Part shown: positions 13,261 to 44,957 of the stretch, in pieces | Layout of the letters: the number at the start of each line of letters is the position of its first letter | Numbering within the stretch: the first letter of the stretch is position 1 | Assembly (NCBI GenBank): GCA_035714785.1 | Contig: DASTLQ010000004.1 | Span: 48,248 to 112,247 of the forward strand | Direction: 5' to 3' | Source: Minisyncoccota bacterium | GTDB taxonomy: Bacteria; Patescibacteriota; Minisyncoccia; Phycocordibacterales; UBA9973 | Length of the DNA stretch: 64,000 nucleotides | Notes under the pieces: generated by a model | Databases searched by the model: none | The model's input: only the letters and a program-made list of their open reading frames with translations | What the model was told of the DNA's origin: nothing | Program-made: the position numbers and the translations under genes

Positions 13261-13353
13261 TTGCAACATGCAAGGTTCCCCTCCAAGGGTCCACCTTCGC
13301 CAGAGGCGAAGGCGGACCCTTTAACACGCAAGGGGACCCCTTACACGTTGCAA
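13261..13353. repeat. composite palindromic repeat copy R4 (with terminal inverted repeats TTGCAACATG / CACGTTGCAA)
   Basis: Reads ...CAAGGGTCCACCTTCGCCAGAGGCGAAGGCGGACCCTTTAACACGCAAGGGGACCCCTTACACGTTGCAA, in the divergent region between secG and the metalloprotease gene. Confidence 0.85.
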
Positions 13354-13382
13354 TTTCCCTTAAAAAGGAGTATAATTAGACC

Positions 13383-21350: not shown

Positions 21351-22395
21351 ATACACAAGAACGTCATCCATACGGATAGGCGTTTTTGTTTGAACTTTGA
21401 CAATATGATTGAATAAAATTGAGAACGCCGACATTTCAAGTCGGCAAGCAAGTCTCAAGAAGTTTTGTAAATAAATAATCAGAGCTAGGAACAAGAAATT
21501 AAAACACAAAAACAATACTGTTTTTTGTTTTGTTTCGTTCCACTGTCAATTTTTTAAAATGACAGCCTAACTTTTAGTTAGAGTTTGATCCTAGCTCAGG
21601 ATGAACGCTGGCGGCGTGGCTAAGGCATGCAAGTCGAACGAATCAGTCCCATGAATGGATGAAAGAAGTTTTGAGTAGCAATACAAGAGACAGATGGATT
21701 TCTGGATTGGGTTTGCTGGTTAGTGGCGAACGAGGTAGTAATACATAGGAACTTCCCCCAGAGTCGTGAATAATCCGGAGAAATCCGGACTAATACACGA
21801 TGGTCTCTTCCGCCAATTGGCGGAAGAGTAAAGTTTTAACGCTCTGGGAAAGGCCTGTGCGATATCAGCTAGTTGGTAGGGTAATGGCCTACCAAGGCTA
21901 TGACGTCTAGGGGAGCTGAGAGGCTGACCCCCACCGATGGAACTGAGACACGGTCCATACACCTACGGGTGGCTGCAGTCAAGAACCTTCCACAATGGAC
22001 GAAAGTCTGATGGAGCGACGCCGCGTGATTGATGAAGTCCCTTTGGGACGTAAAGATCTTTTATGAGGGAAGAAGTTTATTGACGGTACCTCATGAATAA
22101 GAGGCTCCTAATCTCGTGCCAGCAGGAGCGGTAATACGAGAGCCTCGAGCGTTATCCGGAATTATTGGGCGTAAAGGGTGCGTAGGTTGTTCTGTTAGTC
22201 TTTCGTTAAATCCTTGGGCTTAACCCAAGAACCGCGGAAGAAACGGCAGGACTTGAAAGTGCGAGAGGCGTACGGAACTCATGGTGTAGGGGTGAAATCC
22301 GTTGATATCATGGGGAACACCGAAGGCGAAAGCAGTACGCTGGCGCATATTTGACACTGAAGCACGAAAGCGTGGGTAGCGAATGGGATTAGATA

Positions 22396-23436
22396 ATCCC
22401 GTCACCGCATTACAATAGTGACGAAGGTGTCTCTTTTTTGTGGCGACACAAGATTGCAATCTAGCTATATCGGTGAAACTCCATACAATATGAAATTTAC
22501 TGATTTCGTATGGACAACCCCGAGGGAAGTTTGATATTTATATCAAACCCCGTAGAGACTATGAATTTGAGAAAAGATAGTAGGAGTTATTAACATTAAT
22601 AAATATGAAAATAACACCTTTGTCAAAAAATGTTCGAGACATCATTCTCGGGTCACTTTTGGGAGATGGCTCTTTGGCCATAAATCCAAAATACAAAAGT
22701 CCTCGATTTTCTTTCAGGCATTCCGTTAAACAAAAGGAATATTTCTTTTGGAAGATGGACATGTTAAAAGAAATTTCAGGTGAATCTTGTTATTGGCTTC
22801 AAGGTAGTGAAAAAAAGCCAGATGGTTGGGGAACGGCCAAATACCGTTTTCAGAGCAGGGCATTGGCTTGTTTGACTGAAATTTATAATCTAACTCATCA
22901 CAGAGTTTCAGGTACTAAAGTTCGGGTAACAAGAAAATGGCTAAATCAATTGTCTCCTTTGTCGCTTGCGATATGGTGGCAAGATGATGGATCCCTTGTA
23001 TCTGATTCCCGCCAGGGAGTGATTTGTACGGATGGTTTTTCCTTTGAAGAAGTGGAAATCATTCATCAATATTTTAGAAAAGTTTGGAATATTGAAACAA
23101 AAATTGGCCGAGTTTCAAATCAAGATAAGTGGAGGATTTGGATTCGATCTTCTGAGGAACTAAAAAAATTCCTCAGGATTATAATTCCGCATGTGTATAC
23201 AAAAAGCATGCTTTATAAAATACTCCTCATCTATAAAGACTCTCAAGTTCAAGAACGCTGGATATCTGAGTTAATTTCTTTAGGAAATTTTTCTGAAAAA
23301 GAAATTAGAGAAGTTCTAGAAAATAGAATTTCAAGAAAGCTCAGATAAAGATATAGTCCGGACTGTATGGCAACATACAGAGGTAAACAGAAATGTTTTA
23401 CCCTTCATAATTTAATTATGAAAGTAACAAAATCAA
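22396..23436 (+). mobile_element. intron (probably group I) inserted in 16S rRNA after GGGATTAGATA, carrying a homing-endonuclease ORF
   Basis: It breaks the universally conserved GGATTAGATACCCTGGTAGTCC region. The boundaries are approximate, to within a few nt. Confidence 0.7.
22605..23348 (+). CDS. double-motif LAGLIDADG homing endonuclease (intron-encoded)
   Basis: Two LAGLIDADG motifs, ILGSLLGDGSL and AIWWQDDGSL, in a 247-aa ORF lying entirely within the 16S intron. Confidence 0.85.
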   Translation: MKITPLSKNVRDIILGSLLGDGSLAINPKYKSPRFSFRHSVKQKEYFFWKMDMLKEISGESCYWLQGSEKKPDGWGTAKYRFQSRALACLTEIYNLTHHRVSGTKVRVTRKWLNQLSPLSLAIWWQDDGSLVSDSRQGVICTDGFSFEEVEIIHQYFRKVWNIETKIGRVSNQDKWRIWIRSSEELKKFLRIIIPHVYTKSMLYKILLIYKDSQVQERWISELISLGNFSEKEIREVLENRISRKLR

Positions 23437-23531
23437 CCCCAGTAGTCCACGCCCTAAACGATCTTCTCTCGGTTTTCGGAGTATCGACCCTCTGAGAGCC
23501 TTAGCTAACGCGTTAAGAGAAGCGCCTGGGA

Positions 23532-23563
<32 letters not shown>

Positions 23564-23977
23564 AGACGGGGACTTGCACAAGCAGTGGATTATGTGGTTT
23601 AATTCGATGGTAAACGAAGAACCTTACCAGGGTTAGAAATCCTATTGAAAGGTCTAGGAAACTAGATCCCTCGCAAGACTGTAGGACAGGTGATGCATGG
23701 CCGTCGTCAGTTCGTGGTTTGAATTGTACCCTTAAGTGGGCTAACGAACGCAACCCTCGTTGTGTGTTACAAGTGTCACACGAGACTGCCCCCACCAAAG
23801 CGCACGAAGCGCGAAAATTTTTTCGCAATAACTTCGCGAATTTTGGTGGGGGAGGAAGGAGAGGATGACGCCAGGTCAGCATGTCCCTTTGATACCCTGG
23901 GCTACACACATAATACAATGGCCGTTACAACGCGCAGCGACGAGGCGACTCTGAGCTAATCGTCTAAAAGTGGCCTA

Positions 23978-24014
<37 letters not shown>

Positions 24015-24412
24015 TGGAATTGCTAGTAATCGCGGGTCAGCTAAACCGCGGTGAATACGTTCTCAAGTCTTGTACTCACCGCCCGTCAATTCAAGGGAGC
24101 CGGGAGTACCCGAAGGCTCTGCGTTCGCAGGGACTACGGTAAGCTCGGTGACAGGGAATAAGTCGTAACAAGGCACGGCTAGCGGAAGCTGGTCGTGGAA
24201 TAATTCAATTTGAAAATCTTCTTTTCTGCTTTATGCGGGAAAGAATTATTGAGTCGATATTGTACAGCTCAATTGACTGTACAATGGACAATGATTTCAG
24301 TCCTAAAAGGAATCTGACATGAGGCAAAGACCCAAGTTAAGGAACGAAACAAAACAAAGGACAGTAAGAAAAAGCTCGCTAATGGCGAGCTTTTTCTGTT
24401 ATAATTTTAGAC

Positions 24413-25318
24413 ATGGAAAAGGGTGCGCATCGAAAAATCGGAATCATTCGTGGAGGGAAAAAACATTACAACGCTTCTTTGAAAGAAGGAAGCGATTTAA
24501 TCGCACATGTATTTGAACGACTTTCTCATGCATGGAAGCCGATTGATATTTTTATCGACAAAAATGGAGCATGGCATGCTAGAGGCGTGCCAGCGAGCCC
24601 AGAAAATTTTGCAGAAAAGGCAGATGTGTTTTGGGATACTACTCGAAATCATGAGCACTTATTAATAGGAAATGTACCGGTGGTGAATGCCTCAGGCGGT
24701 ATCGCTTCTTTATCAATCTCTGGGAGAAAAATGTTTGAAGAGAGTATGAAAGAGATAGGAGTGCGAATTCCTCGGCACATTCTAATTCCCGAGTATCAAC
24801 AAGACATAGATGGTCCGCTTGAAAAATTTATTTTAAAAAAATCCTCAGAAATTTTTGAAAAATTCTCTCCACCTTGGCAAGTGAGATTGTATCCAGGAAG
24901 CGCTAAAGAAGGCGCCCGACTAGTAAGGACTTTTCCCGAGCTTTCAAATGCTCTAGCGGACGGGGTGGGTTACGGCCGAAGTATTCTGATTGAAGAATAC
25001 GTTGGAGGAGAAAAAATACAACTTCACTCGGTGGCTGGTTTTCGTGGGCAGGAGACGTATGTTTTTCCTCCTACTGAAGGTCGGAAAGCGGAAAAAGAAA
25101 AAGCAGTAAATCTCGCTAAAAGTTTGCATAAATATGTGCCTGCTCCGCATTACCTTTTTGCTCAGTTTGTTTTTCACCCAAAGAGGGGAGTATATCTCGA
25201 GGAGCTTGAATTCTCACCCGATCTAGACCCACAATCTCATTTTGCAAAAGCCTGCGCTTCCGTAGGTGCCAAGATGCACCACGTCATAGAACACATCCTA
25301 GGAAAGGCCAAGGTGTAA
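24413..25318 (+). CDS. D-alanine--D-alanine ligase-family ATP-grasp protein (divergent)
   Basis: N-terminal KIGIIRGGKKHYNASLKEGSDLIAHVF resembles the Ddl N-domain. The central and C-terminal ATP-grasp region carries EEYVGGEKIQ. Confidence 0.5.
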   Translation: MEKGAHRKIGIIRGGKKHYNASLKEGSDLIAHVFERLSHAWKPIDIFIDKNGAWHARGVPASPENFAEKADVFWDTTRNHEHLLIGNVPVVNASGGIASLSISGRKMFEESMKEIGVRIPRHILIPEYQQDIDGPLEKFILKKSSEIFEKFSPPWQVRLYPGSAKEGARLVRTFPELSNALADGVGYGRSILIEEYVGGEKIQLHSVAGFRGQETYVFPPTEGRKAEKEKAVNLAKSLHKYVPAPHYLFAQFVFHPKRGVYLEELEFSPDLDPQSHFAKACASVGAKMHHVIEHILGKAKV

Positions 25319-25418
25319 GGCCAAGGGGTAAGGGGACCCCTTACCCCACCCCTTACCCCAACATGTAAGGGGTCCCCTTACATGTTATCCACAGGGGGCA
25401 AGGGGTCCCCTTACATGT
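25312..25418. repeat. composite palindromic repeat copy R5 (multi-unit)
   Basis: Reads GGTGTAAGGCCAAGGGGTAAGGGGACCCCTTACCCCACCCCTTACCCCAACATGTAAGGGGTCCCCTTACATGTTATCCACAGGGGGCAAGGGGTCCCCTTACATGTG. Confidence 0.85.
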
Positions 25419-25530
25419 GTAGTATAATAATTAAAGGTCGCTTTAAAAGGATTTAAAAAACTACAACTATCATGTCCTTCGGAGGCCACTAAGACCAAAG
25501 AGACAGCATTGCTGTCTCTTTGTAGTTTCA

Positions 25531-26712
25531 ATGCAAAAACACACATCATCCAAATCAAATTGTGCTTACTGCGGAGATGCTCCCATAAACCATGCATTTT
25601 CATATACTGGGGGTGTGATTTCAATGTTTGTTGATCCTTTTTTTGGCAAACTTTCCCGTTTGGTGCCTCAGTTTGCTGTAGACGGGGTGGATTATTTTTT
25701 AAAGTTACTTTTCCATATTCTGCGCGCTATGAGAATAATCCGACTTTCCCGGGATTCTGAAAAGGCCACCACTTTGCGATCAAAGGTAATTTGGGCTGAA
25801 GCTCTGAATAGGGGGATACATATGGAGCAGATAGTTGTCTTTGGAAAATATACGGACAACTATCGTGCAAAGGTGCAAGGCAAATATATTTATTTCGATA
25901 GCTTGCCACTGCCTCATCGCCCACTCAATGACAATGAGGAATGGGATGATAAATTTTATATGAAAAAAGTTTTTGCGGGAGAAAATATTCCGATTCCTGC
26001 ATGTCACAGTTTACCTATTTTCAAAAAAGATCGAAGAAAAATTTTTGATAAATTGCAAAAACCAGTAATAGTAAAACCTCGCAAAGGTTCTCGAGGGAGA
26101 CACACTACTACAAATATCGAAGCATGGGACGAATTTGAAAAAGCATATCAACGAGCAAAAGTATTAAGCCCGGAGGTAGTCGGTGAAGAACATTTAAAAG
26201 GATATGTTTGTCGGGCTACTTGCGTAGCAGGTAAGCTTGCTGGTTTTTATAGAGCAGAGCAAGCTAGTATCACGGGAGATGGAAAAAAATCTATCATAGA
26301 ATTAATAGATGAAAAAAATAAAAACAGACCAGAACGCGTGTCAGAAATTAAATTCACAGATGAAATAAATGAAAGCATAAAGAGACTTGGTTTTAAGAAA
26401 GAAGACGTGTTGCCCATGGGAACCAAAGTAGAGCTTTCTCACCGCACAGGCAGGTTGTTTGGCGGAATCACCAAGGAAATGCTAGACGAATTGCATCCGA
26501 GCTTTGTACCAGTACTCGAAAAAGCAGCTCAAGCTACTACCCTTTCGGTGGTTGGCATGGATTGCATTATTCCAAACCCAGAGCATCCGGAGGACTCCCA
26601 ACGCTGGGGAATCATTGAATGTAACACTCTACCTTTTATCGATCTTCACTATTACGCACTAGATGGAAAACCAAAAAATATTGCAGGCATGATTTGGGAT
26701 TTGTGGAAATAA
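25531..26712 (+). CDS. ATP-grasp ligase resembling the N-terminal ATP-grasp domain of cyanophycin synthetase (CphA-like)
   Basis: PVIVKPRKGSRGRHTT...GYVCRATCVAGKLAGFYRAEQASITGDGKKSIIELIDEKN parallels CphA (VVIKP..G.QGRGV...RVLVVGG.VVAA..R.PA.V.GDG..TI.ELI). The start codon is uncertain. Confidence 0.45.
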   Translation: MQKHTSSKSNCAYCGDAPINHAFSYTGGVISMFVDPFFGKLSRLVPQFAVDGVDYFLKLLFHILRAMRIIRLSRDSEKATTLRSKVIWAEALNRGIHMEQIVVFGKYTDNYRAKVQGKYIYFDSLPLPHRPLNDNEEWDDKFYMKKVFAGENIPIPACHSLPIFKKDRRKIFDKLQKPVIVKPRKGSRGRHTTTNIEAWDEFEKAYQRAKVLSPEVVGEEHLKGYVCRATCVAGKLAGFYRAEQASITGDGKKSIIELIDEKNKNRPERVSEIKFTDEINESIKRLGFKKEDVLPMGTKVELSHRTGRLFGGITKEMLDELHPSFVPVLEKAAQATTLSVVGMDCIIPNPEHPEDSQRWGIIECNTLPFIDLHYYALDGKPKNIAGMIWDLWK

Positions 26713-26836
26713 GGCTTCAAATATGGTAAAATGAAATAGAATTATTTTTATCTGTGACGAGTGATCGCACTCACATAGGCACATATGTTGGAGTTTCGCC
26801 ATCACTCGTCTCAAGTGAAAATAATTTAAAAAAATT

Positions 26837-26868
26837 CTGTCACCAAAATGGTGGCAGTTTTTTTATTT
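26837..26868 (+). terminator. rho-independent terminator-like hairpin + T-tract
   Basis: CTGTCACCaaaaTGGTGGCAG is followed by TTTTTTTATTTT. Confidence 0.4.
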
Positions 26869-27042
26869 TAAAATAAAAAAGTTATCCACAGTTTTGATAT
26901 AAATGTATTGTATTTGATTTCTAGATGCGAGATAATTAAGTTGTTCCTAGCAATAATTGTTTAGAAAAATTTTTTCGTAAGAAAAAATTTTTAGGTCGTG
27001 ATTATTGCAGACTAAATTAAAAATTTAATTCTAAAAAATATT

Positions 27043-27147
27043 ATGGCAGTAAAAAAAGCTAAGAAGGCTGCAAAGAAAGTTGCAAAGAAGCCTGCAAAGA
27101 GAGTAGCAAAGAAGAGCGCAAAGAAGAGCACAAAGAAGCGAGCGTAG
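27043..27147 (+). CDS. 34-aa Lys/Ala-rich basic mini-protein (histone H1-tail / AKKA-repeat-like)
   Basis: ATG at 27043 to TAG at 27145-27147 encodes MAVKKAKKAAKKVAKKPAKRVAKKSAKKSTKKRA. It is absent from the ORF track because it is under 60 aa. The antisense 70-aa ORF is low complexity. Confidence 0.4.
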   Translation: MAVKKAKKAAKKVAKKPAKRVAKKSAKKSTKKRA

Positions 27148-27237
27148 TCTTTTGTCTCTTGAAGAACTTCCGAATCCTATCTGCCCTTGGGCGGATGACG
27201 GGTCGGAAGTTTTTCGTTTTTATGCTAGAATCGGAGG

Positions 27238-29718
27238 ATGGGAATTTTATCAGGATTATTTGGAGATTCAAGCGCCCAGTACATTAAAGGGGCAAGCAAG
27301 GCAGTGGCAAAGATAAATGCCATGGAGGGCGATTTTACGGGCCTGGCTGATGCTGATTTTCCAAAAAAGACATTAGAATATAAAGAAAGGTTGGCAAAAG
27401 GGGAGAAGATTGAGGATCTTCTGCTGGAAGCTTTTGCCTTGGTGCGGGAGGCGGCGAAGAGAAACCTAGGAGAAAGACATTATGATGTTCAGCTGATCGG
27501 AGGTATTACTTTAAATAGTGGACAAATTGCCGAAATGAAAACCGGAGAAGGAAAGACCTTGGTGGCTACTCTTCCAGCCTACCTAAATGCTCTCACTGGC
27601 AAAGGAGTGCATGTGGTCACCGTAAACGACTACCTTGCTCGCAGAGACGCTGTGCTTATGGGTCAGGTTTATAATTTTTTGGGTTTGTCTGTGGGAATAA
27701 TTAATTCACAGAACGTTTCTTATTTATACGATCCAAGGCATACCGAAGAAGATAAAGAACGTGATGCGGTAGGAGAGTTTAAAATAATTTATGATTTTCT
27801 AAAACCATGCACTCGAAAAGAAGCATATGCTGCAGACATTACTTATGGTACAAACCATGAATACGGTTTCGACTATTTGCGAGACAATCTCGCCACCTCT
27901 GTCGATCAGATGGTTCAGCGCGGACATCACTATGCTATTGTCGACGAAGTTGACTCTATTCTCATTGACGAAGCGCGAACTCCGCTTATCATTTCTTCAC
28001 CATCTTCCGAATCTGAAGATTTTTATGTAAAGTTTTATCAAATCGCTCGGCAACTAAAGAAAGAAGATGATTACAAGGTGGATGAAAAGCTGAAAGCCAT
28101 CACTCTCACTGACGAAGGAATCACTAAGGCAGAAAATTTGCTTGGGGTAGACAATATATATACGGAAAAGGGAATAAAATACGTGCACCATTTGGAGACA
28201 GCCGTAAAAGCCCAGGCTCTTTTTGAACGAGACAAGGATTACGTTGTAAAAGAAGGGGAGGTAATCATCGTGGACCCATTTACTGGGCGTCTACAGCCGG
28301 GTAGACGATGGTCAGAGGGAATTCACCAAGCTATTGAAGCCAAAGAAGGGGTAAAGATTGAAAAAGAGAGTCGTTCTTCGGGTACTATTACTTTCCAAAA
28401 CTATTTCCGTTTTTATGAAAAGCTATCCGGAATGACTGGTACAGCCGCTACTTCTGCTGAAGAATTTTTGAAAGTGTACGGACTTGATGTGGTGGTGATT
28501 CCTACTCATCGTCCGATGGTGCGTCTCGATCATCCAGATCTCATATATCAAAGTGAAAAAGGAAAGTTTCAGGCTATCGCCAAAAAAGTGAAAGACCTAA
28601 ATACAAAAGGTCAGCCTGTTTTGATTGGTACTATTTCTATTGAAAAAAATGAATTGCTCTCTGCATATCTACGCCAAGAAGGAGTTGAGCATACTATTTT
28701 GAACGCCAAGAATCATGAGCGTGAGGGTGAAATCATCGCTCAAGCAGGTAGAAAAGGAGGAGTAACTATTGCCACCAACATGGCCGGTCGCGGAATCGAC
28801 ATCAAGCTCGGAGGAAATCCTTATACTGAAGAAAGCCATGAAGATGTAAAATCCCTTGGTGGACTTTTTGTGTTGGGTACTGAGCGCCATGAAGCAAGAC
28901 GTATCGACAATCAGCTTCGAGGACGAGCAGGCCGTCAGGGAGATCCAGGAGAAACTCAGTTTTTTGTTTCGCTTGAAGATGATCTGATGCGAGTCTTCGG
29001 GTCAGAAAGAATTCAGACCATGATGGGACGTTTTGGAATTCCAGAAGACGTGCCAATTGAAAATCGTTTTGTTGGAAAACAGCTCGAAGGAGCTCAGAAA
29101 AAAATCGAAGGTTTCCATTTTGATGCCAGAAAACATACTCTTGAATATGACGACGTGATGAATCATCAGCGTGGAGTGATATATGAACGCCGTCGAAAGA
29201 TGCTTTTGGCAGAAAAAGAGGGAATTGAAGAAGTACTGAATGATATTTGCGAAGGCAGAGAAGGTGCTGAAGAAATGGTTGCTGATAAAAGAGAAAAGAT
29301 TGGTGACAAGGCTCTTCTTGAAACTGTTCGACGTATTGCACTGTATACTACAGACAATCTTTGGATGGAACACTTGGAACAGATGGACTACTTGAGGTCT
29401 TCAGTAAATTTGCGAGCATATGGTCAGCGAGAACCAATCGTGGAGTATAAAAAAGAAGGTCTGCGAATGTTTAGAGAAATGGAAGAAGCATTCAGAGAGC
29501 AGGCAATTTCTCTGATAGGGAATATAAATACTGAAAATGTCCGCAATCTAGAACCCGAGAAGCCGGTAATTCAGACTTTGGTTTTAGGGCAAGCTTCTCC
29601 AGATTCTGTGCCAGAAAATACTGTCTCTACTGCTCAAAATGATGAAAATAAAGTAGGCAGAAATGATCCTTGTCCATGTGGGTCAGGTAAAAAATATAAA
29701 AAATGCCACGGGGCTTAA
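27238..29718 (+). CDS. secA: preprotein translocase ATPase SecA
   Basis: Walker A MKTGEGKT, DEAD-like DEVDSILIDEARTPLIIS, helical scaffold and wing domains, and a C-terminal zinc finger CPCGSGKKYKKCHG. Confidence 0.95.
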   Translation: MGILSGLFGDSSAQYIKGASKAVAKINAMEGDFTGLADADFPKKTLEYKERLAKGEKIEDLLLEAFALVREAAKRNLGERHYDVQLIGGITLNSGQIAEMKTGEGKTLVATLPAYLNALTGKGVHVVTVNDYLARRDAVLMGQVYNFLGLSVGIINSQNVSYLYDPRHTEEDKERDAVGEFKIIYDFLKPCTRKEAYAADITYGTNHEYGFDYLRDNLATSVDQMVQRGHHYAIVDEVDSILIDEARTPLIISSPSSESEDFYVKFYQIARQLKKEDDYKVDEKLKAITLTDEGITKAENLLGVDNIYTEKGIKYVHHLETAVKAQALFERDKDYVVKEGEVIIVDPFTGRLQPGRRWSEGIHQAIEAKEGVKIEKESRSSGTITFQNYFRFYEKLSGMTGTAATSAEEFLKVYGLDVVVIPTHRPMVRLDHPDLIYQSEKGKFQAIAKKVKDLNTKGQPVLIGTISIEKNELLSAYLRQEGVEHTILNAKNHEREGEIIAQAGRKGGVTIATNMAGRGIDIKLGGNPYTEESHEDVKSLGGLFVLGTERHEARRIDNQLRGRAGRQGDPGETQFFVSLEDDLMRVFGSERIQTMMGRFGIPEDVPIENRFVGKQLEGAQKKIEGFHFDARKHTLEYDDVMNHQRGVIYERRRKMLLAEKEGIEEVLNDICEGREGAEEMVADKREKIGDKALLETVRRIALYTTDNLWMEHLEQMDYLRSSVNLRAYGQREPIVEYKKEGLRMFREMEEAFREQAISLIGNINTENVRNLEPEKPVIQTLVLGQASPDSVPENTVSTAQNDENKVGRNDPCPCGSGKKYKKCHGA

Positions 29719-29739
29719 TGGGTGATATAATAACCATAT

Positions 29740-30477
29740 ATGTCGCAACATTCTTATTACATCGCTAAAAATCATGATCTAGTCCTTGATAATCAAGGCA
29801 AACGTTATCATCTTTCCATAAAGGATCTTCCAAAGGAAGAAATGCCTCGAGAAAAGCTCCTAAAGCATGGGCTTTCTGCGCTGTCTGTTCCTGAGCTTCT
29901 GGCTTTAGTTTTAGGCACGGGTACTGTCAAAGAAGATGTCCTTGAAATGTCTTCTCGGATAATTCGAAATTACGGAGAGGGCAGTATCATGTTTGAAAAA
30001 GATCCAAAAGCGTTAGCCGAAAATTTTGATGTACCTATCGGGAAAGCTAGTCAGATCGTGGCATGTGCAGAGCTAGGCCGAAGATTTTTCCAAAAAAATG
30101 AATCTTCGCTTCCAGTCGTACGTACTGCTCGAGAAGTATATGAGTATGTAAAAGACATGCACAACCTTTCCAAGGAAAATCTTCGCGGAATATATCTTAA
30201 TGCTCACTACAAAGTCATTCACGATGAAGTAATTTCAATCGGAACAGTAGATGGAAGTATCATTCATCCGAGAGAAGTTTTCAAGCCAGCCATTGAGCGA
30301 TCGGCGGTAGCTCTCATTTTGGTGCACAATCATCCATCGGGAGTGACCGAGCCATCTGAGGCAGATATCGCTGTGACCAAGCAATTAATTGAAGCTGGAA
30401 AAGTGCTTGGAGTAGATTTGATCGACCATGTGATTGTCACCCGAGATTCTTTTGTCAGCATTCCCGCAGACTATTAA
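29740..30477 (+). CDS. radC: RadC-like JAB/MPN domain protein (UPF0758)
   Basis: N-terminal HhH region (LLALVLGTG) and a JAMM motif HNHPSG...SEAD. Confidence 0.8.
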   Translation: MSQHSYYIAKNHDLVLDNQGKRYHLSIKDLPKEEMPREKLLKHGLSALSVPELLALVLGTGTVKEDVLEMSSRIIRNYGEGSIMFEKDPKALAENFDVPIGKASQIVACAELGRRFFQKNESSLPVVRTAREVYEYVKDMHNLSKENLRGIYLNAHYKVIHDEVISIGTVDGSIIHPREVFKPAIERSAVALILVHNHPSGVTEPSEADIAVTKQLIEAGKVLGVDLIDHVIVTRDSFVSIPADY

Positions 30478-30482
30478 ATTTT

Positions 30483-30758
30483 ATGATTTATTCTCCTTAT
30501 ACAATCCGCTTACCGAGATACTGGATGGTGGAAGACAAACCGGAGAAAAAATATTCTCGATCTTTACCAGAGGCTCGAGAAAATCTGCTTTTTCATATTT
30601 CAAGTGACGACTATTTTGGGACTCTTGCCACTTCGCTGAATTTGCTTAAACAATCCCTAGAGGATGGCAGAAACTTTGAAATAGGAAAAAAGTCTCTGGC
30701 TCACAGCGTGGATGACCTTATGTACCTGCAGAGAAATTACAAAATAACTAAAAAATAA
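30483..30758 (+). CDS. hypothetical protein
   Basis: 91-aa ORF with no recognised motif. Confidence 0.3.
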   Translation: MIYSPYTIRLPRYWMVEDKPEKKYSRSLPEARENLLFHISSDDYFGTLATSLNLLKQSLEDGRNFEIGKKSLAHSVDDLMYLQRNYKITKK

Positions 30759-30762
30759 CAGA

Positions 30763-30957
30763 ATGGAAATAGGAGAATATAAGCATTTTAAAGGAGGAAT
30801 ATATGCAGTGACAGGGGTTGCCAAGTTTTCCGAAGATCCCGAAAAGGAGTTCGTCATTTACGAGCATGATGGTGTTCTCTGGGCGCGTCCCAAAGAAATG
30901 TTTTTAGAAGATGTAGTGGTCGATGGGAAAAAAGTGCCGAGATTTAAAAAGATATAA
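30763..30957 (+). CDS. DUF1653-like small protein
   Basis: YKHFKGGIYAV...EKEFVIYEH matches the DUF1653 pattern (Y.HYKG..Y). Confidence 0.45.
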   Translation: MEIGEYKHFKGGIYAVTGVAKFSEDPEKEFVIYEHDGVLWARPKEMFLEDVVVDGKKVPRFKKI

Positions 30958-31306
30958 TTATATGATGGAAGGAAAAGGGGAATTCACATATCGAGAAAAA
31001 AAAGAGATAAGAGAAACTCTGACAAAGGCACTTTCCAATTTTATTATTCTTTTTGAGAACGCTGTTGATAATTACGGGCTCGATAAAATTGAAATACAAA
31101 AGGCCGTAGAACAGTTAAATATGAAAGAAATGACGAAGCAATTATATGCAAAAGGTAATAGGAAAGAAGAGGTTTCTCAGATTGCTGAAGAATATAATGC
31201 GCTGGTGAAAAGGATTTTATCTAATGAGTTTAATGCCTTGGCGGAAAACGTGCAGGAGATAAGAAAAAAATTGAGAGAGCTGTTTCTAGAGGCGAAAAAA
31301 TTATAA
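30923..31306 (+). CDS. hypothetical coiled-coil protein
   Basis: Charged, helical 127-aa ORF. The start is uncertain (Met-rich N-terminus). Confidence 0.3.
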   Translation: MGKKCRDLKRYNYMMEGKGEFTYREKKEIRETLTKALSNFIILFENAVDNYGLDKIEIQKAVEQLNMKEMTKQLYAKGNRKEEVSQIAEEYNALVKRILSNEFNALAENVQEIRKKLRELFLEAKKL

Positions 31307-32559
31307 TGCTTCTTAAAAAACTGAAAATTAAACGCAGGATGATCACCTGGCTGTCTGCTATGCATTTTTTTGGTAATCCTTCGGCAAAGATGAAAATAGT
31401 GGGAGTGACTGGTACCAATGGAAAGACCACCACCACTACGCTGTTGTACGATGTGGCTATGGCACTCGGACATAAATCTGGACTAATCGGGACGGTAGAA
31501 AATAGGATAGGAGAGGAAAGACTACCAGCTACTCATACTACGCCTGATCCACTAAACTTAAATAAATTGTTGAAAAAGATGGCGGAAGCTGGGTGTGAGT
31601 ACGTCTTTATGGAAGTTTCTTCCCATGCACTTGATCAGAAGCGTACGGCGGGGGTAGCTTTTGCTGGCGCGGTTTTTACCAATCTGACTCATGATCATTT
31701 AGACTATCATCAAAATGTTGAAAATTATTTTAATGCAAAGAAGAAATTGTTTAAATATCTCCCTGCTACTTCTTTTGCCATTTCGAATGTGGATGATCCA
31801 TACGGAGAGAAAATACTAGAAGGAATTTCTGGCCGAAAGTTTTCATATGGTTTTGATAAAAAGGCAGATTATTATGGAAAGATAGACAGTCTAAATTTTT
31901 CTGGCCTTCAGCTTGAAATAAATAGCACCCCAATCACATCAAAGTTGATTGGAAAATTTAATGCGTATAATATTTTAGCGGTTTGGAGCGTTTGCAATTT
32001 ACTTGGTTTTGATATGAAAAAAGTGGCGGAAATATTTAAAGGTATAAAGCCACCAAACGGAAGATTTGAACATTTTGTTTCTCCGACCGGAGCGCTCGTG
32101 ATCATAGACTACGCTCATACTCCAGATGCCCTTCTAAAAGTACTTCTAACCGCCAACGAAATTAAGTGTAAGGGGTCCCCTTGCATGTTATCCACAGGTG
32201 CACCGAGGTTGATTTCCCTCGCTGGATGTGGTGGGGACAGAGATCCAATGAAGCGGGAAAAGATGGGGCGAATAGCAGCCGAGCTTTCAGATATTTCGAT
32301 ATTTACTTCTGATAATCCTCGAAACGAAGACCCGTCGAAAATCATTGAAGAAATGAAAACAAGCCTGACGCCCGACCTTTTGGAAAAAGTAAAGACAATT
32401 CCTGATCGTAGGGAAGCTATTATAAAAAGTGTCCGAATTGCCAAAGAAGGGGATATCATTCTCTGCGCTGGAAAGGGGCACGAAGATTATCAAGAGATAG
32501 AAGGCGTCAAGCACCACTTTAATGACCTAGAGGAATACAAAAAAGCATATGAAAAATAA
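31306..32559 (+). CDS. murE: UDP-N-acetylmuramoyl-tripeptide synthetase MurE-like Mur ligase (short N-terminus, repeat insertion)
   Basis: P-loop GVTGTNGKTTTT, HTTPD, DYAHTPDAL, GCGGDRD and SDNPRNEDP are MurE hallmarks. Only ~28 aa precede the P-loop. A 33-nt repeat copy is inserted in-frame between DALLKVL... and ...ISLAGCGGDRD. Confidence 0.75.
   Translation: MLLKKLKIKRRMITWLSAMHFFGNPSAKMKIVGVTGTNGKTTTTTLLYDVAMALGHKSGLIGTVENRIGEERLPATHTTPDPLNLNKLLKKMAEAGCEYVFMEVSSHALDQKRTAGVAFAGAVFTNLTHDHLDYHQNVENYFNAKKKLFKYLPATSFAISNVDDPYGEKILEGISGRKFSYGFDKKADYYGKIDSLNFSGLQLEINSTPITSKLIGKFNAYNILAVWSVCNLLGFDMKKVAEIFKGIKPPNGRFEHFVSPTGALVIIDYAHTPDALLKVLLTANEIKCKGSPCMLSTGAPRLISLAGCGGDRDPMKREKMGRIAAELSDISIFTSDNPRNEDPSKIIEEMKTSLTPDLLEKVKTIPDRREAIIKSVRIAKEGDIILCAGKGHEDYQEIEGVKHHFNDLEEYKKAYEK
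32166..32198. repeat. repeat copy R6 inside the murE coding sequence (in-frame, 33 nt)
   Basis: GTGTAAGGGGTCCCCTTGCATGTTATCCACAGG is translated as CKGSPCMLSTG within MurE. Confidence 0.85.
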
Positions 32560-33904
32560 ATCTACCCAAAAAAATAATTTCCGACAATTTTTCGCAGGAA
32601 AAAAGATCACCGTGATGGGGCTAGGAATTTTGGGCCGTGGTTTAGGGTATACAAAATTTATGGCCGAATGTGGAGCCGATTTGATAGTGACCGATTTAAA
32701 GACAAAAAAAGAACTCGCCAGCTCTATAAAGGAGCTTGGAAAATTTAAGAATATCCAATTTGTACTTGGCGAACACCGCCTAGAAGACTTTCGCAATCGG
32801 GACATGATTTTGAAAGCTGCGGGAGTGCCAATGAATTCTCCTTTTATAGAAGAGGCTCGCCAAAATAGCATTCCGATAGAGATGGATGTTTCTTTTTTTG
32901 CTAAACTTTCTCCGAGCACAATACTGGTCGGAGTGACAGGCACTCGCGGAAAATCTATGACCACTGCGTTAATTTATGAGATTTTAAGAAAGAACGAAAA
33001 GGTTTTGAAAGGAAAAGTATATCTTGGGGGAAACATGCGGGGAATAGCGACTCTTCCTCTTCTTAGGAAAACGAGCCTTGCCCTTGGAAAGACAATAGTA
33101 GTCTGCGAGCTAGATTCATGGCAGTTGCAAGGATTTGGTGATGCTAAAATTTCTCCGCAAGTTTCAGTTTTTACATCTTTTATGCCCGACCATATGAATT
33201 ACTACAAGGATGATTTGAAAAAATATTTTAATGATAAAGCAAATATTTTTAAGTATCAAAAGAAAGGGGACTTGCTTGTGGTGCGCCCTCTTGTGCGCAA
33301 ACTCATTCCGAAAAATTTGAAAAGTACCCTTTTAGTGGTAGACCCGAAGACAGCTCAAAAGTATGAGTTTGTCGTTCCGGGCACTCATCAACGTGAAAAT
33401 CTCGCTTGCGCCATAGAAGTTGCAAAATATTTTAAAATTCCTAAAACTAATATCGAAAAGGCCGTTAAAAATTTTAAAGGTCTAGAAGGACGGATGCAAT
33501 ATCTGCTAAAGATAAATGGAGTAAAGATTTACAACGATAACAACGCTACTACTCCGGAGGCTACAATTGCGGGAATTGAGGCGCTAGTTAATGAAAAGAT
33601 AATTTTAATTTCAGGAGGCTCAGACAAAGGGCTAGACACAAAAAAATTAGTGGGAATGATGGAGAAGAACTGCAAGAAGGTGATACTTTTGACAGGAACG
33701 GGCACGGCTAAGCTGCCTTTAATTTCTAATTCCATAAAAGTGAAGTCACTTAATGAGGCCGTCCGCACCGCACTTAAAGAGGCAAAAAAGGGAGATATCA
33801 TTTTATTTAGCCCTGCTTTTGCTTCCTTTGGCCCACCGCCAGGAGGATTCAAGAATGAATATGATCGCGGGGATCAATTTATAGATATAGTGAAAAGAAT
33901 ATAA
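32549..33904 (+). CDS. murD: UDP-N-acetylmuramoylalanine--D-glutamate ligase
   Basis: N-terminal Rossmann motif ITVMGLGILGRGLG. P-loop GVTGTRGKSMTT, DSWQL, and C-terminal domain. Confidence 0.85.
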   Translation: MKNKSTQKNNFRQFFAGKKITVMGLGILGRGLGYTKFMAECGADLIVTDLKTKKELASSIKELGKFKNIQFVLGEHRLEDFRNRDMILKAAGVPMNSPFIEEARQNSIPIEMDVSFFAKLSPSTILVGVTGTRGKSMTTALIYEILRKNEKVLKGKVYLGGNMRGIATLPLLRKTSLALGKTIVVCELDSWQLQGFGDAKISPQVSVFTSFMPDHMNYYKDDLKKYFNDKANIFKYQKKGDLLVVRPLVRKLIPKNLKSTLLVVDPKTAQKYEFVVPGTHQRENLACAIEVAKYFKIPKTNIEKAVKNFKGLEGRMQYLLKINGVKIYNDNNATTPEATIAGIEALVNEKIILISGGSDKGLDTKKLVGMMEKNCKKVILLTGTGTAKLPLISNSIKVKSLNEAVRTALKEAKKGDIILFSPAFASFGPPPGGFKNEYDRGDQFIDIVKRI

Positions 33905-35145
33905 TGAGCACTAATTTAGACTTATCACAAATTAAGAAAATATTTTTCATCGGTATCGGTGGAATAGGTATTTCTGCTTTAGCCAAGATGGCGCTCTCTC
34001 GCGGGATAGAAGTGTCTGGAGTAAATGACGAAGAAACAGAGAAGACGCTGAGTTCATTAGTAGGAGATGGCGCAGAGGTGGTTATGTTGAAAGATTACCA
34101 GTCTTTGCCCGAGGCGGATATGTATGTTTATAGTGATGCTTGGATTCATCGCGGACCCGAGATAATAGATTCGGCTAAAAAAACGGGGAAGCCAACCCTT
34201 TCATATTTTGAAGCACTTGGAAAGTTTGCCGAGGAATATAAAGTGATAGCCATTTCAGGTACGCATGGAAAGACTTCCACCACGGCTATGGTGGCGGAGA
34301 TATTGATAGATGCTCAAATGGATCCGACGGTAGTAGTAGGATCTTTTGTAAAAAAATTTGGAAGCAATTTTAGAAAAGGGGAGAGCTCGTATCTAGTAGT
34401 AGAAGCCGACGAATATAATCGACATTTTTTAAATTTTAATCCGTTTATCGGAGTGGTCACCAATATTGAAGCTGATCACCTCGATTGTTACAAAGATCTT
34501 GCAGATATAAAAAAAGCTTTCGAGCAATTTTTGGCGCAAAGCCAAAACGTAATTGTAGATTTTGAAAAGTATCTAGAAAAAGTGCCAAAGCTCGCCGTGC
34601 CAGGTGAACACAATCGTCAAAATGCTGCTACCGCACTAGCGGTAGCGGATTTGTTGGGTGTGGATCTAGGGTCTGCCAAAAGATCGCTCTCAAATTTTGC
34701 GGGAACATGGAGACGTCTAGAGAAGATTAGAGAAACTAGCGAAGGGGTAATTGTGTATGATGATTATGCACATCATCCCACTGAAATCAAAGCGAGCCTT
34801 CAAGCACTGCGCGAACTTTACCCCTTAGGGCAAAAGAAAATCACAGTCGTTTTTCAACCTCATCTATATAGTCGGACAAAAGCCTTGTTTGATGATTTTG
34901 CGACCAGCTTCAAAGGCGCCGACAGGGTAATATTACTTCCTATATACTTTGCTAGAGAAAATCCGGACGAAAGCATTTCTTGTGGTAAGCTTGCAGAAGC
35001 AATATGTGCTACTGGGCAGTCTGCGATCGCATTTACTGATTTTGAACTGACTGAGAACTATTTGAAAGACTTAGAATTTGGACCCGATGACATTTTTGTC
35101 ACCATGGGGGCAGGGGAAGCCTACAAAGTAGCTGAAATTCTGTAA
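33904..35145 (+). CDS. murC: UDP-N-acetylmuramate--L-alanine ligase
   Basis: IFFIGIGGIGISALAKMA (the MurC N-terminal GIGG), P-loop AISGTHGKTSTT, and DYAHHPTEI. Confidence 0.85.
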   Translation: MSTNLDLSQIKKIFFIGIGGIGISALAKMALSRGIEVSGVNDEETEKTLSSLVGDGAEVVMLKDYQSLPEADMYVYSDAWIHRGPEIIDSAKKTGKPTLSYFEALGKFAEEYKVIAISGTHGKTSTTAMVAEILIDAQMDPTVVVGSFVKKFGSNFRKGESSYLVVEADEYNRHFLNFNPFIGVVTNIEADHLDCYKDLADIKKAFEQFLAQSQNVIVDFEKYLEKVPKLAVPGEHNRQNAATALAVADLLGVDLGSAKRSLSNFAGTWRRLEKIRETSEGVIVYDDYAHHPTEIKASLQALRELYPLGQKKITVVFQPHLYSRTKALFDDFATSFKGADRVILLPIYFARENPDESISCGKLAEAICATGQSAIAFTDFELTENYLKDLEFGPDDIFVTMGAGEAYKVAEIL

Positions 35146-35171
35146 AATAGGCGACAAAAAAAAGAAAAAGA

Positions 35172-35239
35172 CCTGTGGATAACATGCAAGGGGACCCCTT
35201 ACATGTTATCCACAGGGTAAGGGGTCCCCTTGCATGCAG
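35172..35239. repeat. composite palindromic repeat copy R7
   Basis: Reads CCTGTGGATAACATGCAAGGGGACCCCTTACATGTTATCCACAGGGTAAGGGGTCCCCTTGCATGCAG, immediately after the murC stop. Confidence 0.85.
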
Positions 35240-36159: not shown

Positions 36160-36268
36160 AAAACAGGTAAGGGGATGACCCTTACCTGTTTTGCGTGTAA
36201 GGGGACCCCTTACCCTGTGGATAACATGCAAGGGGACCCCTTACCCCAAGGTGGGCCCTTTCCTTACA
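36160..36268. repeat. composite palindromic repeat copy R8 (includes an A-tract/hairpin/T-tract bidirectional-terminator-like unit)
   Basis: Reads AAAAAACAGGTAAGGGGATGACCCTTACCTGTTTTGCGTGTAAGGGGACCCCTTACCCTGTGGATAACATGCAAGGGGACCCCTTACCCCAAGGTGGGCCC, between convergent genes. Confidence 0.85.
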
Positions 36269-42730: not shown

Positions 42731-43120
42731 ATGTATAAAAAAATAATTTTTCTCGCAGTTGTTCTTCTTCTGGTCATCGCTCCGGTAGATATTTTCCCTG
42801 CAGTAGCAGAAGGATTGGTAAAGTGTGGCACAGATAAGCCATGCGGATTTGAAGATCTTTTGATTTTAATAAATACGGTAGTGAACTTCGTGATGATTCA
42901 GTTAATGATTCCTTTGGCTGCGCTTTTGTTTGCTTATGCGGGAGGAATGCTGATGTTCTCAGGAGGAGAAGTATCAAAGAGACAACAAGCCAAGAAAATA
43001 TTTACCAATGTCGCCCTAGGTCTCATCATAGCGGCCGCATCATGGCTCATCGTCAATACAGTCCTTACCATTATGGGGTATAACGGTGCTTGGATAGGAT
43101 TTAAAGATGTTGTACAATAA
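42731..43120 (+). CDS. pilin-like two-TM small protein (CPR T4SS-pilin / VirB2-TrbC-like family), paralog 1
   Basis: Signal/TM segment, then a hydrophobic helix, a short charged loop (GGEVSKRQQAKK) and a second hydrophobic helix. Confidence 0.45.
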   Translation: MYKKIIFLAVVLLLVIAPVDIFPAVAEGLVKCGTDKPCGFEDLLILINTVVNFVMIQLMIPLAALLFAYAGGMLMFSGGEVSKRQQAKKIFTNVALGLIIAAASWLIVNTVLTIMGYNGAWIGFKDVVQ

Positions 43121-43502
43121 ATTTATGAAAATTATAAAAAATCCACTTGTTATCATCACTATCATAATGCTGGTGTCCTTTTTTCCTTTGGTTACATTTG
43201 GTCAGGCTACTGGTAGCGCACCACCTGCACCCCCCGTGGAAAACCCAATTAAAAATCCCATCGGTGTCAGCTCGTTTACTGGACTCCTAAAACAAATCCT
43301 GGAAGGGGCGATCAAAATTGGTATGCCAGTCATAGCGCTTGCGATTATTTATTCAGGTTTTCTTTTTGTTGCAGCTCAAGGTAATCCAGAAAAACTCGAT
43401 ACGGCCAAGAAATCTTTCGTATATACTTTGATCGGAGCAGCTATACTACTCGGAGCTTGGGCACTGGCTCAAGTGATCACAACGACCGTGCTTTCTTTAT
43501 AA
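43107..43502 (+). CDS. pilin-like two-TM small protein, paralog 2
   Basis: Same topology. The loop reads AAQGNPEKLDTAKKS. Confidence 0.45.
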   Translation: MLYNKFMKIIKNPLVIITIIMLVSFFPLVTFGQATGSAPPAPPVENPIKNPIGVSSFTGLLKQILEGAIKIGMPVIALAIIYSGFLFVAAQGNPEKLDTAKKSFVYTLIGAAILLGAWALAQVITTTVLSL

Positions 43503-43520
43503 ACTAATATAATTATTTAA

Positions 43521-44435
43521 ATGGAAATCAAAGATATAATAATCAAGCTCGGAAATTTACTGGATACATTGTTACCCGTATTAGTTTTAGCTGGTGTGGT
43601 GATTTTCGTTTGGGGAGTGATTCAATACGTGATAGGAGGGGACGAAGAAGCCAAATCAAAAGGAAAGAATCGCATCATCTGGGGTATCGTCGGGTTTGCG
43701 ATCATTGCAGGATTATATGGTTTAATCAATATAGTATTAAATACTTTTGGGTTGGATCCATCGAGCGGAAATTTGGTTTCGCCTACGGGCCTAGTTCCTG
43801 CTACACCTACGCCAGGTACTTGTGAGGGTACTGGTAACATCGGTTCACTCATCTGTAAAATTGGAACAATTCTCAATTCTATCATTCCTCTCCTCATCAG
43901 CTTCGGGGTAGTAATCTTTGTATGGGGAGTAGTGCAGTACGTGATAGGAGGGGACGAAGAAGCCAAATCAAAAGGAAAAGACAGAATGATTTGGGGAATC
44001 ATCGGACTAGTGGTGATCGCCTCAATGTGGGGATTGGTCAATATGGTAGTGAAAACTTTTGACTTAAATCCGACGGGGTCTAGTGGAGTGGCTAATCAAT
44101 TTTTACAAAATACTAGCCAACTCGGTAATACTCCCGGTACTTGTTCTATCGCTGCAACGGGAGCAAGTCTCGGGGACCTTATGAATTATGCGACCTGTCT
44201 GATTACTAAGTCGGTAATTCCTCTAATCTTTTCATTGGCAGTTCTCTTGTTCGTCTGGGGAGTAGTACAGTATGTGATATCTGGAGCAAATGAAGAACAA
44301 AAAGACAAAGGGAAGAATTTCATGATATGGGGAATCATTGCGCTTACTGTGATGGTGTCTGTCTGGGGGATTGTGCGCATTGTAGGTGATACTTTTGGGA
44401 TAGAATATGCGATTCCGCAGGTGAAGAGCAGGTAG
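43521..44435 (+). CDS. triple-module pilin-like protein (three tandem two-TM pilin-like units fused in one ORF)
   Basis: Three repeats of VIFVWGV(I/V)QYVIGGDEEAKSKGK(N/D)R(I/M)IWGI(V/I)G...NTFGL. The first two share an identical 40-nt stretch TACGTGATAGGAGGGGACGAAGAAGCCAAATCAAAAGGAAA. Confidence 0.5.
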   Translation: MEIKDIIIKLGNLLDTLLPVLVLAGVVIFVWGVIQYVIGGDEEAKSKGKNRIIWGIVGFAIIAGLYGLINIVLNTFGLDPSSGNLVSPTGLVPATPTPGTCEGTGNIGSLICKIGTILNSIIPLLISFGVVIFVWGVVQYVIGGDEEAKSKGKDRMIWGIIGLVVIASMWGLVNMVVKTFDLNPTGSSGVANQFLQNTSQLGNTPGTCSIAATGASLGDLMNYATCLITKSVIPLIFSLAVLLFVWGVVQYVISGANEEQKDKGKNFMIWGIIALTVMVSVWGIVRIVGDTFGIEYAIPQVKSR

Positions 44436-44567
44436 GCGGTATCCACAGTTTCCTCTTTTGTCTTTATTTTGTATGGTATAATTAAAAAAGAACCTAAACA
44501 TTAGGAAAAAATTATAAGGTCGTTTCCGCGAGAGCGGTGTTATCAATAATCCCGTTAGGGAAAAAAA

Positions 44568-44954
44568 ATGAAAAATAAATTAATCGTATTTATGGTTTCC
44601 GCAGCCTCATTGGCTTCTATGCCTTTGTTTGCTTTGGCGCAGGGTAGAGGAGGTGCTTGTAGTGTAGTAAACACACAAAATACCATTCAGGGTATCATTT
44701 GTAAGGCAGGAGAAATATTGGGAGTAGTGCTTCCATTCTTGGTTGCATTGGCAGTTGTTATCTTTGTGTGGGGAGTAGTGATGTATGTTGTTTCAAGTGA
44801 CGAGGAAGCAAAGAGCGCTGGAAGAAACAGAATGATCTGGGGAATTGTCGGTCTTGCAGTGATCGTATCATTGTGGGGATTGGTAAGAATCTTGACCAAT
44901 ACTTTTGACCTTAACACAAATCAGGGTGTTACTTTGCCAGTACTTCCTTACTAA
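44568..44954 (+). CDS. pilin-like two-TM small protein, paralog 4
   Basis: VIFVWGVVMYVVSSDEEAKSAGRNRMIWGIVGLAVIVSLWGLVRILTNTFDL is the same module. Confidence 0.5.
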   Translation: MKNKLIVFMVSAASLASMPLFALAQGRGGACSVVNTQNTIQGIICKAGEILGVVLPFLVALAVVIFVWGVVMYVVSSDEEAKSAGRNRMIWGIVGLAVIVSLWGLVRILTNTFDLNTNQGVTLPVLPY

Positions 44955-44957
44955 TAA

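Follow-up and report, generated by a model that had tools for sequence, protein, structure and literature searches.

Two kinds of short palindromic element and one family of ligases are the closest described counterparts of what was found in the window, which is the whole stretch of 64,000 nucleotides (64 kb) from contig DASTLQ010000004.1 of a Minisyncoccota bacterium, and in which one copy of a dispersed palindromic repeat lies in frame within murE, the gene of the Mur ligase MurE. Repetitive extragenic palindromic (REP) sequences and REPINs, mobilised by RAYT (TnpA-REP) proteins, are GC-rich hairpin repeats of 21-65 nt that occur in dozens of near-identical, overwhelmingly intergenic copies, often as inverted or tandem pairs. 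A cognate RAYT (Y1 transposase) gene in the genome, commonly with REPs on either side, is one criterion for REP sequences. A conserved 5' GT[AG]G tetranucleotide at the hairpin foot is another, and in-frame REP insertions in RAYT genes and other genes have been described as harmless in flexible loops (PMC6006769). Rickettsia palindromic elements (RPE) are selfish and are found in frame in unrelated housekeeping genes, where the peptides that they encode sit at positions compatible with protein fold and function (PMC10969869). In characterised Mur ligases, the uridine diphosphate (UDP) moiety is bound by the N-terminal domain (domain 1), and a two-domain ancestor of the superfamily has been proposed (PMC10117817). 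FolC/FPGS, MurT and CapB also consist of a middle ATPase domain and a C-terminal domain without a UDP-binding N-terminal domain; their substrates, unlike that of MurE, carry no UDP.

The best explanation of the locus, with a probability of roughly 0.8, is that murE is a functional 'short' gene into which one unit of a lineage-specific repeat was recently copied, and that the copy is tolerated in a surface loop. The gene, its motifs and the copy within it are located as follows.

31306..32559, plus strand: murE coding sequence, 417 amino acids, two-domain 'short' form (Mur_ligase_M and Mur_ligase_C), from the list of open reading frames (ORFs), Pfam, NCBIfam and Foldseek
31306..31389, plus strand: conserved basic N-terminal helix, residues 1-28, MLLKKLKIKRRMITWLSAMHFFGNPSAK, the sole remnant 5' of the P-loop
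31402..31431, plus strand: ATP-binding P-loop GVTGTNGKTT, residues 33-42
32107..32133, plus strand: DYAHTPDAL at the start of domain 3, residues 268-276; the helix 273-289 that comes after it ends at the insert
32164..32199, plus strand: 36-nt stretch identical to 2558..2593 on the minus strand, holding the 33-mer 32166..32198 and a DnaA box, TTATCCACA, at 32188..32196
32167..32193, plus strand: net insertion of 27 nt, TGTAAGGGGTCCCCTTGCATGTTATCC, encoding CKGSPCMLS, residues 288-296, from the codon alignment with L003, L004 and L005
32224..32244, plus strand: GCGGDRD, residues 307-313, immediately 3' of the strand 302-306 that comes after the insert
32308..32334, plus strand: SDNPRNEDP, with DNPR inside, residues 335-343

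The repeat in murE is translated in frame as CKGSPCMLST(G). From DYAH to GCGG there are 39 codons, as against 30 in L003, L004 and L005, the three nearest orthologs of which the DNA was compared (65-67% identical as proteins). Cutting out the segment TGT...TCC leaves EIK-T-GAPRLIS where the orthologs have EIK-(S/L/T)-GAGRLIS, and the orthologs also have the codons on either side, AAG (Lys) and ACA GGT (Thr-Gly). The left boundary of the insertion is uncertain by 3 nt and the right boundary by 6 nt, and the insertion-less murE sequence would have been ...GAAATTAAG joined directly to ACAGGTGCA.... An earlier reading made from the letters of the window only (the sequence-only reading) had reported a 33-nt in-frame repeat copy at 32166..32198, and the copy is exactly as written there. 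The same reading counted 11 added residues, CKGSPCMLSTG; the addition is in frame, but the net gain is nine codons relative to L003, L004 and L005, from all of which the nine-codon insert is absent.

The 33-mer has nine copies in the window at three or fewer mismatches (none expected, from 100 shuffles), and its palindromic core, AAGGGGWCCCCTT, occurs at 16 sites in the 64 kb compared to 0.09 expected. Oriented copies give a repeat unit of 31-33 nt, [G/A]TAAGGGGTCCCCTT[A/G]CATGTTATCCACAGG. The units are often arranged as tandem or inverted pairs, and the complete form is a 45-nt palindrome, CCTGTGGATAACATGYAAGGGGWCCCCTTRCATGTTATCCACAGG, of which the copy in murE amounts to about two thirds. 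Fifteen of the 16 cores (10 of the 11 loci) are intergenic in a window that is about 91.5% genic and 8.5% non-genic, and the sole intragenic core is the one in murE. The intergenic sites are these.

2558..2593, minus strand: twin of the murE copy, identical at 36 of 36 positions, with a second, inverted DnaA-box-like arm on its other side
2880..2938, unstranded: cluster of units, one full 45-nt palindrome (2894..2938) among them
5157..5169, unstranded: core with convergent genes on either side
13330..13342, unstranded: core with divergent genes (secG and a peptidase-like gene) on either side
25330..25412, unstranded: cluster of three cores
35172..35231, unstranded: cluster 3' of murC, with a full 45-nt palindrome at 35172..35216
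36199..36246, unstranded: tandem pair of units with a 31-nt period, between convergent genes
56874..56886, unstranded: core 3' of tRNA-Tyr
57335..57367, minus strand: repeat unit
58085..58117, minus strand: repeat unit, inside which the Logan contig L006 begins

As DNA, the 45-nt palindrome at 35172..35216 forms a hairpin of -19.5 kcal/mol (z -9.1); the murE copy is without one palindrome arm and folds no better than shuffled sequence (z -0.37). The repeat is like REP/REPIN sequences in being a GC-rich hairpin repeat, with its units of 31-33 nt and its palindrome of 45 nt, and in the near identity, overwhelmingly intergenic placement and frequent inverted or tandem pairing of its copies. It differs from them in its foot, which is GTAA or GCAA rather than GT[AG]G, in the lack of a RAYT or other transposase in the 64 kb, and in having arms that are perfect DnaA-box consensus sequences. 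With RPE, the copy in murE has only one outcome in common, an in-frame peptide in a housekeeping enzyme: RPE are about 100-150 bp long and have their own conserved peptide or ORF, whereas the repeat in this unrelated phylum measures 31-45 nt, and a large fraction of RPE copies are intragenic, compared to one of 16 here. Identity as a miniature inverted-repeat transposable element was also considered and rejected; there is no direct repeat beside the murE copy, and inverted ends are trivial in a palindrome. Exact-pattern scans of 185,579 GTDB species-representative genomes and of JGI metagenomes did not find the family, and their only match, in L002 (a metagenome-assembled genome of Dehalococcoidales), was rejected as a lone unrelated palindrome. 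The repeat can be described as REP-like in behaviour, but it forms an unclassified family specific to its lineage. As an event, the insertion adds one more case to a known phenomenon. The sequence-only reading went too far in calling it unusual for a REP-like element to be inserted in protein-coding sequence: REP and RPE insertions that keep the frame have been documented (PMC6006769, PMC10969869).

Two other observations concern the surroundings of the repeat. The stop codon (5128..5130) of the ORF at 4471..5130 is the TAA of a GGGGTAAGGGG repeat unit, and a repeat cluster may have reshaped the 3' end of this second gene. Some repeat cores have another palindromic motif beside them, CCTTCGCC(W)(S)(W)GGCGAAGG / AAGGGTCCGCC, at approximately 13345..13375 and at 8684..8730 of L006, past the end of the window; ten of its bases, TCGCCTCTGG, recur in the murE insert of L001, possibly by chance.

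If one unit was copied into a functional murE, the net gain of 27 nt, a multiple of three, would have kept the frame, and the copy would persist with no stop codon in the frame of the inserted unit. The repeat unit is without stop codons in four of the six frames, so an in-frame survivor is not improbable. The landing place of the copy would be a loop of the C-terminal domain that is exposed to solvent, is under no structural constraint and accepts insertions of up to 12 residues in relatives, and retention of the repeat between genes elsewhere would be expected if selection removes most intragenic insertions. Copying may have been carried out by a trans-acting REP-type transposase encoded elsewhere, or alternatively by templated repair through the flanking identities AAG (3 nt) and ACAGGT (6 nt), which may have served as microhomology.

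In the AlphaFold2 model of MurE (alignment of 31 sequences; mean predicted local distance difference test score, pLDDT, 87.9), the insert is a coil at residues 290-301 between the helix 273-289 and the strand 302-306, with pLDDT below 50 at residues 291-297. In the alignment to E. coli MurE, it falls in the gap between ...ARLHCAG and KLWCVFGCGGDRD. The predicted fold would put this loop at the N-terminal end of the strand, on the face opposite the ligand-binding edge and away from the active site. Of 119 proteins from the short-MurE clade, 90 have a DYAH-to-GCGG distance of 30 residues, nine have 29 and 20 have 33-42; these 20 carry 3-12 extra residues in the loop, of several unrelated sequence types. 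The insert types are scattered over a neighbour-joining tree (calculated without support values), and a sub-clade united by a common 6-residue insertion or deletion in domain 2 (P0070, P0093 and P0077) exhibits three different loop states. In L001, which contains the murE of P0070, the insert (10880..10928) is of the LLASGENEVNQPKAG type, a 49-nt GC-rich imperfect palindrome in a genome of 34% GC; it is the most stable hairpin in its gene (rank 1 of 136 windows), and as DNA it has a z of -3.5, with none of 200 shuffles folding equally well. Inserts of the LLASGENEVNQPKAG type are also present in P0005, P0008, P0011, P0054, P0074 and P0096, a scatter over the tree that suggests repeated gain or loss. 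The insert of L010 holds a perfect palindrome, CCTGCCGGCAGG, and that of L011 is not palindromic. The insert DNA of L001, L009 and L010 is not repeated within their loci of 10-21 kb. The loop is a natural hot spot for insertions and deletions, and the murE copy is one instance of a recurrent process there, part of which involves palindromic DNA.

Of the three readings offered from the sequence alone, the one that was borne out is a repeat insertion tolerated in a surface loop: structure prediction, which had been proposed there as a check, put the insert in a low-confidence coil between helix and strand, the loop is variable in 20 of 119 relatives, and the motifs of the enzyme are intact. All of the MurE hallmark motifs quoted in the sequence-only reading were found. 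The protein also carries DHLDYH and the conserved Lys-rich motif NAKKK. The N and R residues of the DNPR motif discriminate meso-diaminopimelic acid from L-Lys (PMC3681970). Pfam matches Mur_ligase_M at residues 34-228 (E 1e-54) and Mur_ligase_C at residues 252-391 (E 1e-26), with no match to the N-terminal Mur ligase domain (PF01225). The MurE equivalog model NF001126 of NCBIfam scores 494.1 bits with a cut-off of 373 and is covered from position 93 to 482 of 486, and TIGR01085 scores 424.3 bits with a cut-off of 257.3. The top Foldseek matches of the model are the MurE structures 2xja and 1e8c (template modelling score, TM, 0.81-0.87; E about 1e-35). Compared with the three-domain MurE enzymes of canonical form (E. 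coli 1E8C, M. tuberculosis 2XJA and S. aureus 4C12), to which it is 32-36% identical, the protein has the same fold in domains 2 and 3 (TM 0.81-0.87) and shares the P-loop, DHLDYH, NAKKK, DYAHTPDAL, GCGGDRD and DNPR motifs, but of domain 1 it keeps the last helix only, which is strongly basic. It is only distantly related to MurT (E about 1e-6 or weaker) and reaches 29.5 bits with the FolC model, the cut-off of which is 162.65. Unlike FolC, MurT and CapB, it is by its sequence a bona fide MurE, and its gene forms one operon with murD (32549..33904) and murC (33904..35145), with overlapping stop and start codons; MurD and MurC both keep their N-terminal domains according to Pfam. By all criteria of sequence and predicted fold apart from domain 1, the protein is MurE, and it is presumably an active enzyme that would add meso-diaminopimelic acid to UDP-MurNAc-L-Ala-D-Glu at the expense of ATP. 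At 31306 the murE ATG shares bases with the stop codon of the ORF before it (TAATG). The NCBI annotation (P0001, 418 amino acids) has murE start one codon earlier, at ATA, giving MMLLKK... (31303..31308).

The sequence-only reading had found about 28 residues ahead of the P-loop and no domain 1; about 28-32 residues were found here, without a PF01225 match. The absence of the N-terminal domain is real, but it was misread as a peculiarity of this locus. The best 120 homologs are all 396-442 amino acids long and have the M and C domains only, and the named ones among them belong to Paceibacteria, Parcubacteria, Nomurabacteria or Minisyncoccia. A search against 1.84 billion representatives at 50% identity returned the short form as a single cluster (P0076). 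Nearly all other best hits at this level of clustering are 470-515 amino acids long, or longer fusions, with at most 52% identity, and align residues of approximately 90-100 to residues of about 16-18 in the query. Two seemingly 'short' representatives are truncated gene calls from clusters that hold full-length members. By alignment, the N-terminus of this MurE corresponds to the final helix of domain 1 and its linker in full-length enzymes, and residues 9-18 pair with residues 83-99 of MurE chains in the PDB. The N-terminal helix spans residues 2-27 in the AlphaFold2 model, at low pLDDT, and L6, R10, R11, H20, N24, P25 and S26 are nearly invariant in the 31-sequence alignment. Unrelated genes tightly precede murE at eight loci, and the reading frame here is closed 24 codons 5' of the murE ATG. 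A separate ORF for domain 1, which the sequence-only reading had suggested looking for, was sought with a hidden Markov model trained on 113 full-length MurE N-termini, which detected 32 full-length cluster members at E about 1e-31 or better, although these are near kin of the training set. No stand-alone domain 1 was found in six frames of the 64-kb window (best E 1.2) or in six frames of seven related loci (best E 0.93). A literature search for MurE without domain 1 in Patescibacteria returned nothing relevant. From these comparisons of sequences, the two-domain MurE is the standard architecture of the whole clade (Paceibacteria) and not damage.

Two small ORFs precede murE.

30483..30758, plus strand: ORF of 91 amino acids, of unassigned function, between radC and murE in five of five genomes examined
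30962..31306, plus strand: ORF of 114 amino acids (127 from an upstream ATG), with a stop codon that overlaps the murE start (TAATG)

The 91-residue protein has no Pfam or NCBIfam match and 12 homologs only. In relatives it is 91-103 amino acids long (L001 8339..8650, L003 2971..3216, L004 102..410 and L005 6788..7087), has the invariant motif FHIxxxDYFGTLAT...L(M/V)YLQ, and overlaps the murE start in two of five genomes; a DUF1653 gene often sits between its gene and murE. As a substitute for domain 1 it was rejected: its AlphaFold model is a helical hairpin of low pLDDT (59), not an alpha/beta domain. No homolog of the 114-residue ORF was found in related loci.

The lost domain and the repeat insertion could also be taken as steps of pseudogenisation, given that domain 1, the UDP-binding domain of characterised Mur ligases (PMC10117817), is absent and that a foreign sequence interrupts domain 3. 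Such decay is very improbable: the short form with its conserved N-terminal helix is common to the best 120 homologs, the ORF contains no stop codon or frameshift and keeps all motifs, its NF001126 score is above the equivalog cut-off, and the operon continues with murD and murC, the stop and start codons overlapping. The query matches all 118 invariant columns of the 31-sequence alignment and deviates, always conservatively, at 11 of the 198 columns in which the other sequences are conserved to 90% or more, which is within the range of the family (7.5 +/- 4.8 deviations, maximum 21). The decaying murE envisaged in the sequence-only reading is not supported by these figures, and the result that the sequence-only reading had named as refuting its observation, full-length orthologs with a frameshift at this locus, was not found, as the orthologs are equally short and the ORF is intact. 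An artefact of assembly or library preparation, either a mis-join through the repeat or a chimeric amplification product, is a further reading that is highly unlikely. The source is a metagenome-assembled genome, and the repeat breaks Logan contigs (k=31) at every copy, with contig ends inside the repeat at positions including 35199 and 58090. A mis-join through the repeat, however, would link murE to another locus rather than to its own in-frame continuation. The flanks of the two copies share nothing outside the 36 nt, so a k-mer path can lead from murE into the repeat only if there are reads across each junction. Both junctions are recovered by an independent assembler as well: in the Logan assembly of SRR10492801, contig L008 (window 26834..32193) crosses the left junction and contig L007 (window 32170..35199) crosses the right junction, each with 100% identity.

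A third alternative brings in the DnaA boxes of the repeat. The palindrome consists of two inverted perfect DnaA-box arms (TGTGGATAA ... TTATCCACA) around a GGGGWCCCC core, for example at 35172..35216, and of the 12 perfect DnaA-box consensus sequences (TTATCCACA) in the 64 kb, 11 lie inside repeat copies or next to them, and 10 have the form TTATCCACAGG as part of the repeat. The DnaA-box clusters were rejected as oriC: the window has positive GC skew along almost all of its length and contains neither dnaA nor dnaN, so the repeat copies do not mark an origin here. It is improbable that the insertion in murE was selected for a function, such as a DnaA-binding site, an RNA or DNA hairpin in the murE-murD-murC operon, or a Cys-x4-Cys loop. 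To judge from its sequence, the murE copy carries a perfect DnaA-box consensus and could be such a site; three related genomes have TTATCCACAG as an invariant cis-element 5' of secA, a hairpin of -15 kcal/mol can form in the mRNA segment, and palindromic inserts are present in the same loop of other lineages, with a peptide of the LLASGENE type kept in several. However, one copy is intragenic compared to 15 that are intergenic, the murE copy has only one palindrome arm and the folding score of shuffled DNA, and its hairpin is not followed by a U-tract and is therefore not an intrinsic terminator. The loop inserts are unrelated in sequence across lineages, one of them is not palindromic, and 90 of the 119 relatives have no insert at all.

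The solitary box 5' of secA, AAAAAGTTATCCACAGTTTT, is invariant at 26876..26895 of the window, at about 3086..3105 of L005 and at about 5491..5510 of L001. The proteins of these three genomes are only about 62-66% identical, and two of the genomes are without the palindromic repeat. Because the box is invariant and the repeat is absent from two of the three genomes, the box looks like an ancestral cis-element, and the repeat may have captured it from upstream of secA.

Several observations weigh against a recent copying of the repeat into a functional murE. The closest relative in the databases searched has 67% identity, and the pre-insertion sequence is a reconstruction; an insertion of 33 nt with a loss of 6 nt fits equally well. 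No transposase or RAYT (Y1_Tnp) is encoded among the approximately 58 ORFs of the window, so the mobility of the repeat is deduced from copy number and identity alone. The murE copy is not flanked by a target-site duplication (left flank GAAATTAAG, right flank TGCACCGAG), and the hairpin foot of the copies is GTAA-GGGG or GCAA-GGGG, not the canonical GT[AG]G. The orientation of the loop was drawn from the topology of the alpha/beta C-terminal domain. Both assemblies may derive from the same sequencing run, and the copy could conceivably be a library-level chimera or a minority allele.

The window has several other features apart from murE and the repeat. A 55-nt hairpin-forming block before secA (26756..26810, GACGAGTGATCGCACTCACATAGGCACATATGTTGGAGTTTCGCCATCACTCGTC) is near-invariant across three genomes and may be an undescribed small RNA; the conserved region 5' of secA gave only sub-threshold noise in Rfam, with no match at the gathering threshold or at E<=1. 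All three genomes aligned have a tiny conserved ORF (27043..27147) for a 34-residue Lys/Ala-rich peptide (MAVKKAKKAAKKVAKKPAKRVAKKSAKKSTKKRA), with a terminator-like hairpin 3' of it. Also conserved 5' of secA in related genomes is a pair of genes (24413..26712), a weak D-Ala-D-Ala-ligase-like gene (24413..25318) and a gene for an ATP-grasp protein (25531..26712) with a match (E 4e-41) to cyanophycin synthetase in its N-terminal half. The 16S rRNA gene (21573..24210) is 2638 nt long compared to the 1533-nt model, and it holds an insertion of about 1.1 kb with an ORF (22605..23348) for a LAGLIDADG_2 homing endonuclease. A LAGLIDADG_3 endonuclease-like ORF (55993..56784) ends inside the start of tRNA-Tyr (56770..56854), next to which is the repeat core at 56874. 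Five consecutive small ORFs (42731..45296) match T4SS_pilin (TrbC/VirB2-like), one of them with three copies of the domain.

For annotation, the consequence is that murE is intact and should not be marked by pipelines as a truncated or disrupted gene. A palindrome made of two DnaA-box consensus arms is an unusual repeat, and if DnaA binds it, the repeat could titrate or position the initiator. A more far-reaching proposal, which is speculative and rather doubtful as a whole, is that paceibacterial MurE is a distinct subclass that binds its substrate without a UDP domain, with the help of either the conserved basic helix at its N-terminus or a partner protein, for which the conserved small ORFs always found upstream are candidates, and that the domain-3 loop is a recurrent site of landing or retention for lineage-specific palindromic mobile elements, the element here having captured the ancestral TTATCCACAG (DnaA-box) cis-element and spread it. 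One loop of an essential enzyme repeatedly gains and loses short in-frame segments that are sometimes palindromic, and its variation is a natural experiment in which selfish repeats create protein length variation in strongly reducing genomes. A large and well-populated clade of Patescibacteria presumably builds peptidoglycan with a MurE that lacks the textbook UDP-recognition domain, which bears on the evolution of the Mur ligases and on the design of inhibitors against the UDP pocket.

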